In this document: positions 2,838 through 16,662 of the stretch, in pieces
How positions within the stretch are numbered: position 1 is the first letter of the stretch
Layout: each line of letters begins with the position of its first letter
Origin: a virus
Taxonomy: Duplodnaviria > Heunggongvirae > Uroviricota > Caudoviricetes
Length of the DNA stretch: 18,846 nucleotides
Virus record (IMG/VR): IMGVR_UViG_3300032954_000003
Span: 1-18,846 of that record
Strand: one strand, 5' to 3'
The notes under the pieces: generated by a model
Database searches by the model: none
What the model saw: the letters and a program-made list of their open reading frames with translations, nothing else
Told to the model about the DNA's origin: nothing
Made by a program: the position numbers and the translations under genes

Positions 2838-2911
2838 GCCCATATAGCTCAGCTCGGTAGAGCGCTGCGTTGAAGGCGCAGGCGGCGGTGGTTCAAATCC
2901 ATCTGTGGGCA
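2838..2911 (+). tRNA. tRNA-Phe(GAA)
   Basis: Acceptor GCCCATA/TGTGGGC, anticodon arm CTGCG-TT GAA GG-CGCAG, T loop TTCAAAT. Position 37 is G. Confidence 0.93.
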
Positions 2912-2912
2912 C

Positions 2913-3034
2913 TCGGCCTTAGCTCAGTGTATATCCATAAAGAGCTGCGAAGAAGCGGGTACGGGTAGCGGTGTACAACGTCCGGCCCATGATGAATCGT
3001 GTGTCGCCACTCGTTGGGCAAGTGGCAGGTCGAG
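2913..3034 (+). ncRNA. Enlarged tRNA-shaped RNA X2 (122 nt)
   Basis: 7-bp acceptor-like stem TCGGCCT/AGGTCGA, then TA at positions 8-9. D stem GCTC/GAGC with a 16-nt loop. T-position hairpin GCCACT/AGTGGC lacks TTC. Confidence 0.5.
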
Positions 3035-3037
3035 CCC

Positions 3038-3113
3038 GCCCGAATAGCTCATGCTGGCCGAGCACTCTTGTCTTGTAAACAAGAGATCGCAGGTTCGATT
3101 CCTGTTTCGGGCT
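3038..3113 (+). tRNA. tRNA-Thr(TGT) with 7-bp anticodon stem
   Basis: Acceptor GCCCGAA/TTCGGGC, anticodon arm CTCTTGT-CT TGT AA-ACAAGAG, T arm GCAGG-TTCGATT-CCTGT. Confidence 0.88.
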
Positions 3114-3115
3114 CT

Positions 3116-3193
3116 GGCGTCGGTGTTTATCGCTAAGGTGTGTCGTTTAGGCGTACGACGCGCTGGCTGCGTGTTCAGGGAGCACCGACGCCA
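3116..3193 (+). ncRNA. Structured RNA X3 (long terminal stem plus 9-bp internal hairpin)
   Basis: GGCGTCGGTG pairs with CACCGACGCC, extendable with G-U. Internal hairpin GTGTGTCGT-TTAGGCGT-ACGACGCGC. A GTTCA motif lies at the T-loop position. Confidence 0.5.
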
Positions 3194-3197
3194 ACAA

Positions 3198-3271
3198 GCC
3201 CCTGTTGCCTAACTGGAAAAGGCCACGGTGTTCTAAGCCGTTGCATGAGGGTTCGAATCCTTCCAGGGGTA
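3198..3271 (+). tRNA. tRNA-Arg(TCT)
   Basis: Acceptor GCCCCTG/CAGGGGT, anticodon arm ACGGT-GT TCT AA-GCCGT, T arm GAGGG-TTCGAAT-CCTTC. Confidence 0.93.
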
Positions 3272-3273
3272 CT

Positions 3274-3347
3274 GGGTCCGATGCCGAAGTGGTCGAGGCT
3301 CCTGTTTGTGGAACAGGCACAAGGGGATTCGAGTTCCCCCGGACCCC
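3274..3347 (+). tRNA. tRNA-His(GTG)
   Basis: Acceptor GGGTCCG/CGGACCC with discriminator C, anticodon arm CCTGT-TT GTG GA-ACAGG, T arm GGGGA-TTCGAGT-TCCCC. Confidence 0.9.
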
Positions 3348-3372
3348 TTTGTGGCACGCAATTGAAATACGC

Positions 3373-3552
3373 ATGACTAAGTGGGTGACCATCGGCTGGT
3401 CAGCTACACCGATCTGGGTCGATGACGATTCGTGTCAGTTCGAAAGCTGGAGCGTGTGGCGTCCAACAGCGAAGATGGCAGATAAGGCGGCGCAACGCAA
3501 GATAGCTCGCCAGATTCGCAGACGTGAACGATGCTACAACGTCAAGCTGTAA
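3373..3552 (+). CDS. Hypothetical protein (59 aa)
   Basis: MTKWVTIGW...ERCYNVKL has coding-like GC3 and stops 3 nt before the next ATG. No SD is visible. Confidence 0.45.
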   Translation: MTKWVTIGWSATPIWVDDDSCQFESWSVWRPTAKMADKAAQRKIARQIRRRERCYNVKL

Positions 3553-3555
3553 TCG

Positions 3556-3873
3556 ATGTACATAAAACAACCGCTAAAGGACGCTGTTGACGAGGTGCTT
3601 GAGATCCTCGGTCTACCATCGAACGAGTGGAAGGATAGAGAGTACGCTAAGCGCGTCAAACGAGACGAGAAGACAGCAGGAATGCAGTATGAGATGGACG
3701 AGTCAATCTACATACTGCGCGCTGCGCTCGGACAGCCGGTCCCACGTTTGCGTTGTAAGGTGTGCGAGGCGCGGGATGCGATCTATTGGGAGAGCGAGCC
3801 CAAAGATCCAAGCAAGGCGCCAAAAGGACAACCCAGAAAACAAGCATTGGTGTCATCAATGCGGGACGCTTGA
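3556..3873 (+). CDS. Hypothetical protein; may continue in the +1 frame to 3910
   Basis: The translation is protein-like and includes CKVC. A second CxxC (WCHQCG) lies in the +1 frame just downstream. Confidence 0.6.
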   Translation: MYIKQPLKDAVDEVLEILGLPSNEWKDREYAKRVKRDEKTAGMQYEMDESIYILRAALGQPVPRLRCKVCEARDAIYWESEPKDPSKAPKGQPRKQALVSSMRDA

Positions 3874-6210: not shown

Positions 6211-6585
6211 ATGTATGCGACACTGACAAAGGAATTCAAGTTCGAGGCTGCACATCAGCTTCTAAATCACCAAGGCAAGTGTCGTAATTTGCATGGACAC
6301 AGTTACAAGGTAGTGGTCGAGCTGGTAGGTGAGGTTCAAGGTCAGACAGGGATGTCTGACGAGGGTATGGTTGTTGACTTCGATGAAGTCAAGGCAGTCT
6401 GGAACACACTAGAACCGCTGTTAGACCATCGAAACCTCAACGAAACCCTTGGTCCACATATAGGTCCCACAACGGCTGAGAACATCGCAGGATGGCTCCT
6501 AGCTGCCTTTGTAGAGAACCTGCCACAGACTACAGCAGTAACTGTGTATGAGACCGCCACTAGCAGCGCAACGGTACGGGTGTGA
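6211..6585 (+). CDS. queD: 6-carboxy-5,6,7,8-tetrahydropterin synthase
   Basis: FEAAH, CRNLHGHSY, GMVVDF, LDHRNLNE, PTTAENIA and VYET motifs. Confidence 0.95.
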   Translation: MYATLTKEFKFEAAHQLLNHQGKCRNLHGHSYKVVVELVGEVQGQTGMSDEGMVVDFDEVKAVWNTLEPLLDHRNLNETLGPHIGPTTAENIAGWLLAAFVENLPQTTAVTVYETATSSATVRV

Positions 6586-7004
6586 TAGATCGTCTGCCTG
6601 CCAACTTACGCCAGCGTATTGTTGTAGCTGAGGATGGTTGCTGGTTGTGGGTGGGCCATTGTAATCGAGGTGGCTATGGTATCCTTGGCGGTCGTCCTAG
6701 ACCACAACTTGCGCATCGGTTGGTGTGGGCAGCACTTGTAAGTTCGGATGTACCAGAGCATCTTCACCATAGGCTGACGTGCGCAAAGCGTTGCGTCAAT
6801 CCAGACCATCTAACGGGAACAACTAACGCGGAGCATCCTGATTCGGCACCGCGTTGGCAGGCTGCTAAGACGCACTGTAAGCAAGGTCACGAGTTTACTC
6901 CTGAGAATACCTATCGCCCATCGCGTGGTGGCCGTAAGTGCCGCACATGCGCTAGGGAAGTCGAGGCGCGCAGGGCTGCGCGTTTGCGCGCTGAAGGGAG
7001 GTGA
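6582..7004 (+). CDS. Free-standing HNH homing-type endonuclease
   Basis: CWLWVG..GYG..LAHRLVW..HLHH..CVNPDHL, plus a THCKQGHEFTPENTY..RKCRTC zinc module. It overlaps the queD stop (GTGA). Confidence 0.88.
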   Translation: MIDRLPANLRQRIVVAEDGCWLWVGHCNRGGYGILGGRPRPQLAHRLVWAALVSSDVPEHLHHRLTCAKRCVNPDHLTGTTNAEHPDSAPRWQAAKTHCKQGHEFTPENTYRPSRGGRKCRTCAREVEARRAARLRAEGR

Positions 7005-7009
7005 TGCCA

Positions 7010-7768
7010 ATGGACGCTGTATCAACAGTGCGGCTCAAGACAACTCCAGTTATCGAGTGTTTTGGGCCTACCTAAGCGGGACCATTCAAGGTGAGGGCCC
7101 AGACGCTGGGAAGTCCTGTTACTTCATCCGCGTAGGTGGATGTGATTACAGATGTTCATGGTTAAAGGTGTGATAGTCTTTACGCCGTAGACCCAGCAGA
7201 AGTGCGGGAGAATGCAGAGAAGCTAACTGACGAGGAGATCCTCGCGCGTGTCGCTGTGCTGGGTGATCCCAAATTAGTGGTCATTTCAGGCGGAAATCCA
7301 GCTCTTCATCGGCTGGGTCCACTTACAGACAGATTACATGATGAAGGCTACAGAGTAAGCGTAGAGACACAAGGTTCTATCTGGCGTGATTGGTTGTACA
7401 AGGTCGATCGGCTTGTTGTAAGTCCAAAGCCACCGTCGAGCAATATGGCAACCGAAGCTCACGAAAAACAGACTGCGTCATTTATGGATGCTGCGAAGTG
7501 GATGTTGGGTCGAGTAGCCGTCAAGATTGTTGTCTTTACTGAGGATGATTATGAATGGGCGCTACGGTTCCATCAGAGATACAACTACTATCCTTTCTAC
7601 ATGAGCGTAGGAACAACTCAAGGCTTAGATGATCCCTCAACGATCGGTATTGTGTTAGACCGCTTACGATGGCTCTGTGAGCGGGTAGCAGGTGATCCTA
7701 GAGCATCCAACGTAACGGTAGGAACACAGCTTCATGTACTTGCCTGGGGAACGCGTCGTGGCGTCTGA
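7010..7768 (+). CDS. queE: 7-carboxy-7-deazaguanine synthase (radical SAM), split into three reading segments by 11-nt and 7-nt inserts
   Basis: SD GGGAGG at 6996-7001. Segment 7010-7072 ends ECFGPT. Segment 7084-7161 reads IQGEG..FIRVGGCDYRCSW. Segment 7169-7768 reads CDSLYAV..VVISGGNPAL..VSVETQGS..VVSPKPPSS..QLHVLAWG. Confidence 0.9.
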
Positions 7769-8360
7769 CGCGCCCGACTGGGCTAAAGACAAGCGTAAGG
7801 CTGTGCCTTATAACTGGTATGAGGAAGCGTTCCTCAATCTGCTATACGGCGTTGAGGGTGACGGTGCCAACCGCGATGGTCTCAAGGAGACTCCTAAGCG
7901 TGCGGCTAAGGCTTGGATAGAAAAAACAGATGGGTATGGCCGCGATCCTAGTGAGTTGTTCAAGACCTTTGAGTCAGACGGCTATGACGAGATGGTGGTT
8001 GTGCGAGATATAGAGTGGGCGAGCACATGTGAGCATCACCTCGTACCATTCTTTGGTCATGCTCATGTTGCATACATCGCACAAGGGCGGATTATTGGCT
8101 TGAGCAAGATCCCACGTTTAGTTGACCTGTATGCTCATCGCCTACAGACGCAAGAGCGTATAACCATGCAGGTAGCTGATGCATTGGAGAAGTATCTCGA
8201 ACCGGCAGGTGTGGCGGTAGTCCTGCAAGCACGGCATATGTGCATGGAGTGTCGTGGCGTCAAAAAGAGCGCCACCACGATGACAAGCGTAACCCGAGGT
8301 GCCATGCGCGACAAGGCGGCAGCTCGGGGCGAGTTCCTTCGATTGATTGGAGTACAATGA
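7758..8360 (+). CDS. folE: GTP cyclohydrolase I
   Basis: GLKETPKR, STCEHHLVPFFG, GLSKIPR, RLQTQERIT and HMCMECRGV motifs. The GTG start overlaps the end of queE. Confidence 0.96.
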   Translation: MASDAPDWAKDKRKAVPYNWYEEAFLNLLYGVEGDGANRDGLKETPKRAAKAWIEKTDGYGRDPSELFKTFESDGYDEMVVVRDIEWASTCEHHLVPFFGHAHVAYIAQGRIIGLSKIPRLVDLYAHRLQTQERITMQVADALEKYLEPAGVAVVLQARHMCMECRGVKKSATTMTSVTRGAMRDKAAARGEFLRLIGVQ

Positions 8361-9052
8361 GCGGTGCGATCGTGAGTCTGTCTGGTGGACAAGACTCGGC
8401 AACTTGTTTATTCTGGGCGCGCAAAAACTATGACACCGTAGAGGCTGTCAGCTTTGATTATGGGCAGCGCCACGCGGTTGAGCTTGAATGCGCTGAAGCT
8501 TTAGCCCATCGTTGGGATATCGCACACCGCGTCATAGCTATGCCAGCGCTTATGTCTATCGGTGGCGCTTCTCTTATAGACAACTCTATTCCTTCAAAGT
8601 TAGATGCAACTGATACAGGCAATGAGTTCGCAGCAGCGCGTGGATTGCCTTCTAGCTTCGTACCAGGTAGAAACATCCTCCTACTAGGTTGCGCAGCCGC
8701 ATACGGGCTTACACGCGGTCTCAGCACCCTTGTAAGCGGGATATGCCAAGAGGACGAGGCAGGTTATCCCGACTGTCGCGCCGCATTTGCGTCAGCACTA
8801 CAGACGACTGTACAGATTGGTACCGATACTCCCGAGTTCCAGCTAGTAACACCCCTAATGTACAAGTCTAAGGCAGAGACCTGGCAGATGGCCAAAGAGC
8901 TAGGTGTACTGGATGAGATAGTCGAGCTTACGCACACCTGCTATAACGGTAACCATTCAGATCAGCACCAGTGGGGCTATGGTTGTAACGAGTGTCCAGC
9001 ATGCCAGACACGCGCCAAAGGTTTCAATGAAGCATTCCTGGTGCATGCATGA
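8357..9052 (+). CDS. queC: 7-cyano-7-deazaguanine (preQ0) synthase
   Basis: SLSGGQDSAT, FDYGQRH, FVPGRN, GYPDCR, TPLMYKSK, THTCYNG and GCNECPAC motifs. ATGA overlap with folE. Confidence 0.96.
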   Translation: MSGAIVSLSGGQDSATCLFWARKNYDTVEAVSFDYGQRHAVELECAEALAHRWDIAHRVIAMPALMSIGGASLIDNSIPSKLDATDTGNEFAAARGLPSSFVPGRNILLLGCAAAYGLTRGLSTLVSGICQEDEAGYPDCRAAFASALQTTVQIGTDTPEFQLVTPLMYKSKAETWQMAKELGVLDEIVELTHTCYNGNHSDQHQWGYGCNECPACQTRAKGFNEAFLVHA

Positions 9053-9795
9053 TCCCAGAGCTGCCGATTCAAGATGTTCCTCTATCCGATCTACACACCA
9101 ACCCTAAGAATCCCAGGAGGATTACGCCGGAGCGTAAGGCGGCGTTGTCGAAGTCGCTTGAGCGTGAGCCGTCCATGCTTCGTGCTCGTCCGCTTGTGGC
9201 GTTGCCGGACGGCACAGTTATTGTAGGGAACATGCGACTAGCAGTCGCTCAGGAGCTTGGCTGGGAGAGCCTGCCTACAGTCTATGTCGATCTAGATGAC
9301 GAGCGCGCCAAGCTGTGGATGTTGCGAGATAACCAGGAGTATGGTGAGTGGGTGCAAGAGGATCTAGAGGCGCTCATCTACGAACTCAACGAGCAATCGG
9401 CCGATTTGGAGCTAACAGGTTTCAGTAACGAAAAGCTCGAAGAGTTGTTACACCTAGACAAGGTGGCCGAAAACGGTGAGGACGGTCAAGGTGACAAGCT
9501 GGCGCTAATGAGCGTAAGTCTTGGTGAGCCACGACACAAGACTGAGCGTGGTGAGGTCTGGATGTTAGGTGACCATCATCTTGTCATTGAGGATGTATAC
9601 ACTGGCTGGGCGACCGCTATCAAGTTCCTTGAACCTCATGATCTGTTCGTCCCTTACCCGATCCTTATTGCGCCGTTGACAGAAAGAGCCCGCGAAAAGC
9701 GTTTCGTCATGATGCAACCTGACGCATGGCTCGCAGGGCATATGTTGGACAAGTATGCTGAGATAAATGGCGAGGATACAGTGGTGAAGCTGTGA
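9049..9795 (+). CDS. ParB/Srx-like N-terminal domain protein
   Basis: L..NPKNPR.I..L..SL..PLV...GTVIVGNMRL.VA.ELGW..LP..MLRDN..GEW is the ParB-like domain of phage ParB-methylase fusions. GEVWMLGDHHL follows, but there is no methylase core. Confidence 0.8.
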   Translation: MIPELPIQDVPLSDLHTNPKNPRRITPERKAALSKSLEREPSMLRARPLVALPDGTVIVGNMRLAVAQELGWESLPTVYVDLDDERAKLWMLRDNQEYGEWVQEDLEALIYELNEQSADLELTGFSNEKLEELLHLDKVAENGEDGQGDKLALMSVSLGEPRHKTERGEVWMLGDHHLVIEDVYTGWATAIKFLEPHDLFVPYPILIAPLTERAREKRFVMMQPDAWLAGHMLDKYAEINGEDTVVKL

Positions 9796-10751
9796 TCCAA
9801 ACGGGTGGCGGCAAGTTTGATCCCGACGAACCATTTGTGTTCTTCATGGCAGCGTCCGCTTCTGTCTTCCAAATGGTTGAGGTAGGACGTTACGAACACC
9901 TACTGGTGCCTATCGGCAAGACAGGCGAACAACGACAACTCGAATCGCTGCTCGATGGTAAGATTTTCCTTGACAGTGGGATCTTCTCGCTAGCCGCTGC
10001 ACATGCACGTAAGCATGGAATGCTTGTCAACGAGGCGTTTACCTTAGCGCCGGATCAGGTAGATGGGTTTGACGCTCTCCTAAGCCGTTACATCGACCTA
10101 GCGCGCAAGCTAGGGCCGAGACTATGGGGATACGTTGAGCTGGACCTAGGAGGCGCCGACAACAAGCGCAGGATGCGCCGGTACTTAGAGGATCAAGGGC
10201 TACGGCCGATTCCCGTGTATCACCCGTTAGCGGACGGCTGGGACTATCTAGACGAGCTGCTGGACGAGTATGACCGAGTGTGCATATCGAACCTAGCTCG
10301 CTCAAGTCAAGAAGCTCGTAAACAGATCCTGCTGATGGTATGGGAACGCGTACGTCGGCACCACAACAAACCGTGGATACACCTACTAGGCTTGTCGGCT
10401 AGCCAGATCCTTCTCTCATTGCCATTCAACAGCTGTGATTCAGCCAGCTTGGCTTACAGTTTGCAGTATGGAAGTGACATGCAGATGGGCCGCGCAATGA
10501 TGGGCAACTTCAGCCAGCTAGGCGACAAAGGCTACAGCTATGACCAGTCTGTTCCCTCAGACGAGGAACGTGGCACGCCAAAGGCAGGTAAGATTGTATC
10601 TCTACTAGCACTGAGTGAACTACGCTGCTGGCGCCGGATCTGGGACGATCTCGAAACGGCAATAGGCCCTATGCCTTTGTACCCCGAGCCTTTTCCTCTC
10701 GAGCTAGATGTGCGAAGAGCGACGACCGGCTTAGGCCCACTAGTTCGCTGA
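9792..10751 (+). CDS. dpdA: DpdA-like tRNA-guanine-transglycosylase-fold DNA 7-deazaguanine inserting enzyme
   Basis: FLDSGIFS, YVELDL, PIPVYHP, WIHLLG and SCDSAS motifs of phage DpdA/TGT-like proteins. It is the last gene of a folE-queD-queE-queC cluster. Confidence 0.75.
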   Translation: MIQTGGGKFDPDEPFVFFMAASASVFQMVEVGRYEHLLVPIGKTGEQRQLESLLDGKIFLDSGIFSLAAAHARKHGMLVNEAFTLAPDQVDGFDALLSRYIDLARKLGPRLWGYVELDLGGADNKRRMRRYLEDQGLRPIPVYHPLADGWDYLDELLDEYDRVCISNLARSSQEARKQILLMVWERVRRHHNKPWIHLLGLSASQILLSLPFNSCDSASLAYSLQYGSDMQMGRAMMGNFSQLGDKGYSYDQSVPSDEERGTPKAGKIVSLLALSELRCWRRIWDDLETAIGPMPLYPEPFPLELDVRRATTGLGPLVR

Positions 10752-14977: not shown

Positions 14978-15823
14978 CTAGCAATCCTCGGCGCGCTTAT
15001 CCGGCCGGCGCCGCTTGAACTGAGGGTGCCTTAGTCCTTCGATTCCACCGTGATAGGCGATCTCAATGACAGTGCCGACCCACGACTCGTCAGGCGCTTC
15101 GGATTGTTTGTAACCCGAGCAGCTTCCTAGTCGCTTCAACTTGCCGTTGACGTACTGACCAAAGACAATGGACGAACACGGACCACGAGCGCCAGACTTG
15201 AAGCCCATAACTACAACATCCATCGTTTCCTGCGGTTTGATCTTGAACCAGCCGCCACCACGCCGGCCGCTGCCGTAGGGTGCGTCGAGCGCCTTTACAA
15301 CGCCACCCTCGTACTCTTCAGAGAGCAGCCGTTGGACGTTCTCATCGGACGCAGTAGGCAGCTGGAAGATGAGTTCCATGTATGCAAACTCATTTAGGTG
15401 GAACATATCGTTCAGCAGCGTACGCCGACTAGACAGGGGCAACGACCGTGCATCGATACCCTCAATGGCGAGAACATCGAACACGACATATCGCAGGTTT
15501 GATGCATTGGACCCACCGTCTGTCATTTCCGACTGCACAGATCCCCAGTTCTCACCGACCATCTCGCCGTCGAACCACGTACCGACTGGGAAAATATCTG
15601 CCATCTCGTACGCGAGCCCTCGGTGGGTGTACTCCTTGCCTGATCGTGAATAGAAGTGACAGCCATCCTCGGCGATCTCAGCTAGGATGCGCCAGCCGTC
15701 GAGCTTAGGCTCAAGGACAAACCGTCCTGAGGGTGCGCTCTTGATCGCCTGTGCGTTTTGGGCTAGCTGGCCGCTCAGGGCCAGTTCTCGGTGCTGCTGT
15801 GCTGTTGGAAGTGTTTTCGTCAT
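14978..15823 (-). CDS. ATP-dependent DNA ligase (adenylation plus OB domains)
   Basis: Motifs EPKLDGWR, FDGEM, YVVFDVL, EGGVVK and WFKIK, then an OB fold ending LRHPQFKRRRPDK. Confidence 0.93.
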   Translation of the reverse strand: MTKTLPTAQQHRELALSGQLAQNAQAIKSAPSGRFVLEPKLDGWRILAEIAEDGCHFYSRSGKEYTHRGLAYEMADIFPVGTWFDGEMVGENWGSVQSEMTDGGSNASNLRYVVFDVLAIEGIDARSLPLSSRRTLLNDMFHLNEFAYMELIFQLPTASDENVQRLLSEEYEGGVVKALDAPYGSGRRGGGWFKIKPQETMDVVVMGFKSGARGPCSSIVFGQYVNGKLKRLGSCSGYKQSEAPDESWVGTVIEIAYHGGIEGLRHPQFKRRRPDKRAEDC

Positions 15824-16662
15824 GCTGCCACCTTCTTCCGGCTCTTAGGCTTGACCGCTGCAATGGAAGCTTCCAGTGCTGCTGTCAGATCAGGCGTCTC
15901 AGCTGCGACTGCCTTCTCAGCAGCCTTGGCGATCGGCTTGCCAAGCAGAGCGGCGTCAATCGCCTCACCGCGCGCCTCGACAGATGCATCCGTCAGGGTG
16001 GCAAAGTCCACCTCAGTCGGCAATACCTGCCCTAGAAACGTGGACATAAGCGTGACAGCCTTCTCCGGTGCGGTGGCGGTATTCTCTTCAGCCGGTCGCA
16101 CCTCCTGCGCGTACCGCACACGATTCATGCACAGCACGTTCCCGACAGGGTGGATCGCCACGATGTGTTCACGACCGCGTGTAGCCCATTTTGCAATCAG
16201 CGCCTTGCCGTCCAATGCGTGCGCAAGGGTGGCGACTGCTTGGTCAGAGCCCTTGATCTTGCGCGACGGACGCACGTACCAAAGTTCGTTCACCTGCTGC
16301 ATCGGTACGCTGTCCATCGGCACAATTGCCACAGGCGTCAGTTCCTTACTGCTGATCGCCTCATCGATTTCAGCAAGCGTGCTGTCATCGATTGCGTGGA
16401 AGTGTCCTTCAGCGTCCTCGACTGCCTTGACAACCGGCGTGGTGTTCTCGAATTCGCCGGCCTTCTCACGGGCTGCCGTGCGTCGCAGCTTGCCTCCGGT
16501 GCATCGTTCCTCGCGGACGAAAGGCTCGTGGTGACACTCGCACACTTGCCTCAGCGGGATGTCTCCCTCGTACGCGTCTGTTCCCTTAGTGACCTCAACT
16601 GCAATTGGCGGCAATCCCGCCAGCGGGATAGACCCGCTCCAGATTGATCGTGCTACTGCCAT
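15820..16662 (-). CDS. ku: Ku (non-homologous end-joining DNA end-binding protein)
   Basis: RSIWSGSI, VVKAVE, WYVRP, RGREHIVAIHP and PDLTAALEASI motifs of prokaryotic Ku. SD AAGGAG. Confidence 0.85.
   Translation of the reverse strand: MAVARSIWSGSIPLAGLPPIAVEVTKGTDAYEGDIPLRQVCECHHEPFVREERCTGGKLRRTAAREKAGEFENTTPVVKAVEDAEGHFHAIDDSTLAEIDEAISSKELTPVAIVPMDSVPMQQVNELWYVRPSRKIKGSDQAVATLAHALDGKALIAKWATRGREHIVAIHPVGNVLCMNRVRYAQEVRPAEENTATAPEKAVTLMSTFLGQVLPTEVDFATLTDASVEARGEAIDAALLGKPIAKAAEKAVAAETPDLTAALEASIAAVKPKSRKKVAA

Follow-up and report, generated by a model that had tools for sequence, protein, structure and literature searches.

The queE locus of the phage window

The stretch of DNA analyzed here, referred to below as the window (18,846 nucleotides, nt), is the first 18.8 kb of an 82.8-kb phage record of IMG/VR (IMGVR_UViG_3300032954_000003), which as a whole has 53% GC and carries 29 tRNA genes. 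Our analysis concerns its queE gene, which codes for a radical-SAM enzyme of 7-deazapurine synthesis. A preliminary description, made from the sequence alone, had held that this gene is split inside its conserved motifs by one block of 11 nt and one of 7 nt, and every detail of that layout that could be tested proved correct (Table 1). When both blocks, termed here coding gaps 1 and 2, are excised, a 246-residue Bacillus-type QueE is read from the ATG at 7010 that is otherwise free of defects, and it is only after both excisions that the FGPTIQGEG and CxxxCxxC motifs share one frame. The joined protein aligns codon for codon with that of the closest intact relative (L210/P0003) at 60% identity, and segment C is 60–62% identical to the intact proteins P0003 and P0004. 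Segment C alone, the longest piece that is encoded, reaches 182.9 bits with TIGR03365 over profile positions 39–238, the cut-off of this profile being 206.1.

The make-up of gap 1 (a stop, a G-rich stretch and ACC) is similar to that of the 8–9-nt inserts found in Streptomyces, as described below. In addition, the junction ..GGAGGTGATGCC.. at the queE Shine-Dalgarno sequence is common to other interrupted queE genes, as can be seen in their contexts and in the alignment of the Streptomyces loci. Near relatives of the window at the DNA level were found neither in the phage collection nor in IMG/VR.

Table 1 Features of the queE region in the window, followed by the queE inserts in other contigs (insert in brackets, between its flanking codons).
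Feature	Location	Strand	Description
queD (PTPS), intact	6211-6585	+	PF01242, E 2.5e-32
HNH homing-endonuclease-like gene	6582-7004	+	phrog_826 'HNH endonuclease', E 2.8e-36
Shine-Dalgarno GGGAGG	6996-7001	+	Spacing of 8 nt to ATG 7010; seen in sequence
queE segment A	7010-7072	+	21-codon mini-open reading frame, end ..PVIECFGPT, take-off ACC 7070-7072
Coding gap 1, 11 nt	7073-7083	+	TAA 7073-7075 abuts take-off ACC; landing ACC 7081-7083
queE segment B	7084-7161	+	26 codons, IQGEG...GGCDYRCSW, +2 frame; take-off TGG 7159-7161
Coding gap 2, 7 nt	7162-7168	+	TTA 7162-7164 abuts take-off TGG; landing AGG 7166-7168
queE segment C	7169-7768	+	199 codons, CDSLYAVDP...GTRRGV, and stop 7766-7768; ATG frame again
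folE (GTP cyclohydrolase I), intact	7734-8360	+	PF01227, E 4.5e-65
queC, intact	8240-9052	+	PF06508, E 1.4e-66
ParB-like gene	9049-9795		Upstream of DpdA-like gene
DpdA-like transglycosylase (TGT fold), intact	9792-10751	+	phrog_887, E 2.1e-22; phrog_498/620
Insert of L003			GGT[TTAGC]CCG, after FG
Insert of L005			TGC[TGACTGC]GAC, 7 nt after CSWC (site 2)
Insert of L006			ACC[TGACC]ATC
Insert of L022 (= L150, identical)			ACT[TAACC]CTT
Inserts of L064, two gaps			ACC[TAGCC]ATT and CGA[TTACCCGT]TGT, the second being 8 nt after CDFR (site 2)
Insert of L162			TGT[TTAGC]GAC, 5 nt after CEWC (site 2)
Insert of L178			CAA[TTAGGCAG]GGC, gap after FGPTIQ

Interrupted queE genes in other phages and metagenomes

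A comparison with related phage queE genes, as suggested in the preliminary description, showed that inserts recur at these two motifs in 11 other contigs. Several gene calls among the best protein matches of segment C begin just past the CDS motif, and two of these genes, L003 and L005, are truly broken; L002 and L004, with gene calls starting 'M(Y/H)AV', were rejected as candidates, being intact genes with miscalled starts. Four more interrupted contigs (L006, L022, L064 and L162) came from a survey that covered 160 queE loci, 138 of them distinct, in IMG/VR and JGI metagenomes. Two pattern scans of IMG/VR, in which the insert sequence was left unconstrained, added five genes of a second QueE subfamily of the CNLxCxWC type (L173, L180, L181, L183 and L178), while most of the pattern-scan matches turned out on translation to be unrelated genes and were dropped. 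In total, 14 inserts were found in 12 phage or metagenome contigs of 45–72% GC, the window included, which leaves 12 inserts in 11 contigs beyond the window.

These inserts present a common signature. The first insert codon is a stop in 9 of the 14 and TTA in the remaining 5, and in 13 cases the second base of the last insert triplet, as well as the purine or pyrimidine class of its third base, fits the take-off codon, the 14th being the synonymous pair CGA/CGT. Under a uniform expectation, the chance of the stop or TTA lead is about 1e-17 and that of the landing fit about 1e-11. Excision of the inserts yields a full-length QueE with all motifs and no other lesion in 12 of 12 genes. At the site of gap 1, stop-led inserts of 5–9 nt are present in seven of the contigs (L006, L022, L064, L173, L180, L181 and L183), as well as in 84 actinobacterial genomes. 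For gap 2, the comparable cases are three (L005, L162 and L064), all with the same signature. The sole other type of break among the 138 distinct loci is a plain 1-nt insertion in a T-run (L139:1440-1470).

Two in-frame variants of the radical-SAM Cys motif were also seen in these contigs. In one (L068:1400-1510), a C-x3-C motif is followed by about 13 extra in-frame residues before the third Cys, and in the other (L006:1470-1500), the motif reads CDYQHC, with one codon extra. The Cys spacing is thus not absolutely fixed in the QueE family.

One of the carriers, L183, is the cultured Gordonia phage Sour, a phage of G. terrae for which a finished genome is available (MH153810.1). Its queE mini-open reading frame (mini-ORF) appears to run from about 2990 to the TAG at 3044-3046, the insert TAGCACC occupies 3044-3050 and the resume codon would be CTC at 3051 (L326:941-1800 corresponds to 2857-3716 of the record). 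In the deposited annotation, gene 6 (QueE-like) begins at 3084 and the QGEG motif is lost. Its relatives Rosebush, Bipper, Sonali, Funsized, Finch and PenguinLover67 carry an uninterrupted queE directly 3' of queD. Between queD and queE of Sour lies gene 5 (56 amino acids), with a zinc-ribbon-like CxxGH...RxCxxC pattern; a likeness of its product to the C-terminus of the window HNH protein was weak (E 0.018) and was not relied on.

Interrupted queE genes in Streptomyces and other actinobacteria

To the phage genes we added a scan of one genome per prokaryotic species with the pattern FGPT, T-D-R, 1–11 nt and QGEG. This yielded 84 interrupted queE genes, nearly all from Streptomyces, with others from Kitasatospora, Actinosynnema, Micromonospora and some metagenome-assembled genomes. 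All 84 orthologues share one layout: a strong Shine-Dalgarno sequence, a mini-ORF of 14–16 codons ending in LVVNEIFGPT, the insert, and a body of 222–223 codons that begins with (V/F/I/L)QGEG. The insert is most often 7 nt long (42 genomes), followed by 8 nt (21), 6 nt (15), 5 nt (5) and 9 nt (1), and its first codon is TGA in 50 genomes, TAG in 30, TAA in 3 and TTA in 1. The landing triplet fits the take-off codon in 84 of 84 genomes. Where the take-off is ACC or ACT (ACY), the landing is GCC, ACC, TCC, GCT or ACT (NCY), without exception in 81 genomes, and the landing GCG is found with the take-off ACG (2) or ACA (1). Such third-base covariation is what would be expected if one tRNA has to pair at both triplets.

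In the two loci that were examined, the interrupted queE lies inside a chromosomal queC/queD/queE/folE cluster, together with an aminotransferase, a 2-oxoglutarate oxygenase, an ATP-grasp enzyme and a LuxR-type regulator. From this gene content, the cluster looks like one for a 7-deazapurine secondary metabolite. No endonuclease was found near queE in either of the two. Among 401 sampled Streptomyces genomes, 15 carry the interrupted form of the motif, 7 the uninterrupted form and 3 both. Streptomyces iranensis DSM 41954 (NZ_CP136563.1) has an interrupted queE with a 6-nt in-frame insert (TGAACC) and an uninterrupted one about 140 kb apart, the two sites being 9544952-9544989 on the minus strand and 9686777-9686808 on the plus strand.

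Selection on both sides of the gap

Selection was analyzed in 77 complete orthologues of the Streptomyces type. For the 223-codon body, the median ratio of nonsynonymous to synonymous substitution rates (dN/dS) is 0.33 at a median dS of 0.95. In the last 10 codons of the mini-ORF, the proportion of nonsynonymous differences (pN) is 0.018 against 0.41 for synonymous ones (pS), which argues that the mini-ORF is translated and that its amino acids matter. The gap is thus flanked on either side by sequence under purifying selection, and a pseudogene can be excluded for the Streptomyces-type lineage. On a tree of the bodies, the insert changed in length at least 15 times and in length modulo 3 at least 13 times, and its first codon was replaced at least 10 times, in every instance by a different stop or by TTA. 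Because the length modulo 3 varies, a frameshift fixed at +1 or −1 could not work in all of the copies, and neither could readthrough; a hop to the landing triplet would give the same FGPT-xQGEG product at every insert length. Re-initiation after the stop was also considered and rejected as unlikely, since the resume codons (GTC, GTA, GTT, TTC, ATT, CTT and others) are mostly no start codons. Selection on both sides, together with the variable frame relation, thus points to a single polypeptide in which the gap would be left undecoded.

Proposed translational bypassing and alternative explanations

We consider it likely that QueE of the window is made as one polypeptide, the ribosome crossing each of the two gaps in a short, programmed hop (translational bypass). 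At gap 1, TAA would come to lie in the A site while peptidyl-tRNA-Thr is still paired with ACC; the tRNA would release, the mRNA would slide by 11 nt, and the tRNA-Thr would re-pair with the next ACC, with decoding restarting at ATT to give FGPT-IQGEG. At gap 2, the codon in the A site would be TTA; peptidyl-tRNA-Trp would leave TGG and re-pair on AGG 7 nt downstream, and decoding would restart at TGT to give CSW-CDS. The sequences show the layout and how it recurs, the covariation of the triplets and the selection on the coding parts, while the hop itself, its efficiency and its purpose are inferred. Two successive hops with this order of take-off, stop or TTA, and landing had been proposed in the preliminary description, and the comparative support for them is strong at gap 1 and moderate at gap 2. 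The idea that TTA acts as a hungry codon is weaker: its place right after the take-off is that of a slow codon, but the phage uses 170 TTA codons (6.9 per 1000), which is not rare, and has its own gene for tRNA-Leu(UAA) (61136-61210, minus strand, one of the 29 tRNAs). If the host is an actinobacterium of high GC, TTA would at first be decoded slowly and later, as the phage tRNA builds up, rapidly, which would restrict QueE synthesis to the early phase of infection.

The gap after FGPT is an old, conserved trait of the QueE lineage in actinophages and in Streptomyces 7-deazapurine clusters, and it probably throttles or times QueE synthesis. On balance, we lean towards regarding it as an ancient selected stop-hop that is built into the whole QueE lineage, is carried by actinophages and by the chromosomal 7-deazapurine clusters of about 4% of the sampled Streptomyces species, and has changed its frame relation at least 13 times while the gene persisted.

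Two further ideas were examined in the phage genome and rejected. A uS12 ribosomal protein gene (74428-74712, plus strand), the product of which might help the hops, is missing in 8 other insert-bearing phage records, 3 of which are at least 90% complete, and is thus no general requirement. As for a suppressor tRNA or an altered genetic code, all 29 phage tRNAs are standard and all three stops end genes.

Several points weigh against the two-hop reading and need to be considered. Besides the frequency of TTA and the tRNA-Leu(UAA) gene, the landing AGG of gap 2 matches the take-off TGG at two of three positions, and support for gap 2 comes from four cases only, all in related phages linked to HNH genes. 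The Streptomyces copies are orthologues and thus no independent samples, and the T-D-R requirement of the genome scan partly builds the stop-or-TTA rule into that set, even though TGG and TTG were permitted as well and occur in none of the queE genes. G-rich interiors were noted in the inserts, but no significant stimulatory RNA structure was detected: the window region folds no better than shuffled sequences (z from −0.4 to −1.9), a consensus fold of 44 aligned Streptomyces loci contains 0 compensatory pairs, and an Rfam search, preQ1 riboswitches included, gave no match. In E. coli, short hops without assistance proved inefficient when measured, and as the losses of two consecutive hops would multiply, a double hop may yield very little enzyme.

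Some of these points would be explained if only gap 1 were a working, inherited hop site, gap 2 being a recent inactivating lesion such as the scar of a repaired HNH cleavage; queE would then be dead in this phage, which would use host preQ0 or no modification at all. The few HNH-linked cases, the imperfect landing, the frequency of TTA and the tRNA-Leu(UAA) gene of the phage are all in keeping with this, as are the two dedicated IMG/VR scans for additional site-2 inserts, which found none, and the Ku homologue and ligase of the phage, which make end-joining scars plausible. Nonetheless, all four site-2 inserts are led by TTA or TGA right past the last conserved codon and have a tRNA-compatible end, a signature that each of them, as a random scar, would show with a chance of about 1 in 100 to 200. 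Segment C, moreover, with its 199 codons, is open and well conserved, and L064 likewise has two gaps in a gene that is otherwise perfect. We therefore regard a lesion at gap 2 as unlikely.

If the damage is extended to both sites, queE would be a plain pseudogene that arose through a homing endonuclease or through random indels, with no recoding involved. The reading frame is, indeed, broken by inserts at two places and stopped prematurely, gene callers take the gene for a truncated one, as did the annotators of Sour, and phages can live on the host supply of preQ0, as do those that carry DpdA alone. Yet the interruption is kept in 84 species under strong purifying selection on both sides, which largely refutes this explanation for site 1, and decay does not explain the sequence signature of the inserts. 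Additional lesions number 0 in the 12 phage genes, and a single ordinary slip (L139) was met among the 138 distinct loci. The preliminary description had argued against random decay from the other genes of the cluster, and both this argument, with queD, folE, queC and the DpdA-like gene intact by their Pfam and PHROG matches, and its conclusion agree with our data. A plain pseudogene thus seems very improbable.

Equally poor are the prospects of ordinary frameshifting, by +2 or −1 at gap 1 and by +1 at gap 2, in which the landing triplet would be decoded and QueE would receive 1–4 extra residues within its motifs. Many landing triplets (GCC, TCC, AGC, AGG) do differ from the take-off and could be read as their own amino acids, and the Cys motif tolerates some extra in-frame residues, as L068 and L006 show. 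However, lengths of 5, 6, 7, 8, 9 and 11 nt need a different shift in each lineage, and in some none; the first codon is a stop, which is undecodable; slippery runs are lacking; and the third bases of take-off and landing co-vary as for the re-pairing of one tRNA. The least credible explanation is that micro-splicing or editing takes the inserts out of the RNA, or that they arose as errors of sequencing or assembly: although exact excision restores the gene, nothing else favours it. We know of no splicing machinery for blocks of 5–11 nt, inserts of this kind are present in over 95 independent assemblies, among them complete Streptomyces chromosomes and the finished genome of a cultured phage, and there is neither a conserved structure nor a homopolymer for polymerase slippage. 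The micro-splicing once offered as the alternative to bypassing found no support.

Association with homing endonucleases

Upstream of the interrupted queE, L022, L064 and L162 have HNH_3 ORFs homologous to the window ORF at 6582-7004, the stop of which (TGA, 7002-7004) abuts the 3' end of the queE Shine-Dalgarno sequence. This window ORF gave no HNH match in a Pfam search, its assignment being that of Table 1. A NUMOD4-HNH ORF lies upstream of queE in L178 and another endonuclease-like ORF in L173; L003 has a helix-turn-helix remnant only, and L006 has no endonuclease ORF. In the unbiased survey, 3 of the 6 loci with a linked endonuclease gene have inserts, compared with a single one among the remaining 132 (Fisher p 1.8e-4), with the reservation that the linked loci are related and their independence is therefore limited. 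All four site-2 gaps are in HNH-linked genes, and the closest intact relative of the window queE has no HNH gene.

Endonuclease genes also stand directly upstream of uninterrupted queE genes, one of the GIY-YIG/NUMOD3 type (L061:772-1377) and one of the HNH_3 type (L062:872-1390); the QueE of the former contig has the variant motif EIFPAIQGEG. It seems that queE is a hot spot for free-standing homing endonucleases of several families. Added phage gaps such as gap 2 may shield queE from the homing endonuclease next to it, in the manner of the gene 60 insert of phage T4. Since an endonuclease is lacking beside the Streptomyces copies, protection is not the original or sole role of the site-1 gap, and phage homing endonucleases may have exploited an existing tolerance of hops to add gaps such as gap 2.

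Other genes of the phage

The real start of queC is probably later than 8240. Elsewhere in the window, genes for an ATP-dependent DNA ligase and a Ku homologue adjoin (14978-16662, minus strand) and represent an end-joining repair of the phage's own, which could matter for the origin of short inserts at nuclease cuts. In the portal gene of the same phage (24746-24970), an ATG at about 24746 is followed by two in-frame stops before the long ORF that is called from 24968, and these stops have the look of stop-hops (GGC TAA CGC and GTT TAG GTT). A search of the 82.8-kb genome for further hop sites, by inter-ORF gaps and by a scan for signature and coding score, returned ordinary gene junctions only, the scan being too crude to recover even the queE sites.

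Implications

If the hops take place as proposed, the queE genes would be the first case in which very short translational bypasses make up a large natural family in cellular genes, and the natural covariation of take-off and landing would read out the rules of P-site re-pairing. The gap may then act as a valve that couples 7-deazapurine synthesis to growth phase or translation state. With about 100 carriers of varied gap length, nature has in effect supplied a set of mutants from which the requirements for take-off, landing and slow codon could be read, with culturable hosts and one cultured phage at hand. It should also be considered that interrupted queE genes are called truncated, as for gene 6 of Sour, or are missed altogether, and the DNA-modification capacity of phages as well as Streptomyces 7-deazapurine clusters may thus be mis-scored as QueE-less. 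Finally, short bypass gaps would be tied to homing endonucleases in a second kind of gene, in support of the view that selfish nucleases can coexist with their hosts through a tolerance of hops.

Comparison with known systems

To our knowledge, natural translational bypassing is confined to very few systems, namely T4 gene 60 and its relatives, yeast mitochondria and the Hau3 candidate. The last of these had been cited as a precedent in the preliminary description, and it is a real one: the terminase gene of phage Hau3 has two 10-nt UUA-led inserts (7 nt in one prophage), and for a variant with UAA, mass spectrometry demonstrated bypassing in E. coli (PMC10732093). Like queE, this terminase gene is an essential, conserved gene of actinobacterial phages with two short frame-breaking inserts, the flanks of which are contiguous in homologues, and in both genes a slow codon follows the take-off directly and a landing codon stands at the 3' end of the insert. 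Stop and UUA appear to be interchangeable in both, as UAA worked in E. coli and one Streptomyces queE orthologue is TTA-led. Unlike the Hau3 gene, queE codes for a radical-SAM enzyme, its inserts are mostly stop-led and 5–11 nt long, its carriers number about 100 rather than three and include chromosomal biosynthetic clusters, and selection on it is documented by sequence comparison.

T4 gene 60 has a 50-nt bypass together with a MobA homing-endonuclease cassette, and the bypass insert blocks self-cleavage (bioRxiv 10.1101/2022.08.31.505936). It shares with queE the matched take-off and landing, the stop after the take-off, the position of the insert within a highly conserved coding stretch and the adjoining HNH homing-endonuclease gene, and in both cases some carriers have retained the gap after losing the endonuclease. 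The queE gaps differ in their length (5–11 nt against 50), in that no take-off stem-loop and no similarity to the cassette were found, in that the gene is not split by the endonuclease ORF, and in that the Streptomyces copies are endonuclease-free.

Stop-hops between matched codons have been obtained in the laboratory, and a review of recoding from 2016 knew of no natural use of stop-hopping (PMC5009743). These constructs have the same codon geometry as queE, notably as the 15 Streptomyces genes with 6-nt in-frame inserts (for example ACT TGA ACC), and as the portal gene of the window phage. In contrast to such synthetic and inefficient constructs, the queE sites are natural, conserved and selected. 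Our literature search returned no paper that ties QueE to frameshifting or bypassing. Judged from their sequences, the queE gaps would add a new gene to those that are bypassed, with the shortest gaps so far, many carriers and a first reach into cellular chromosomes.

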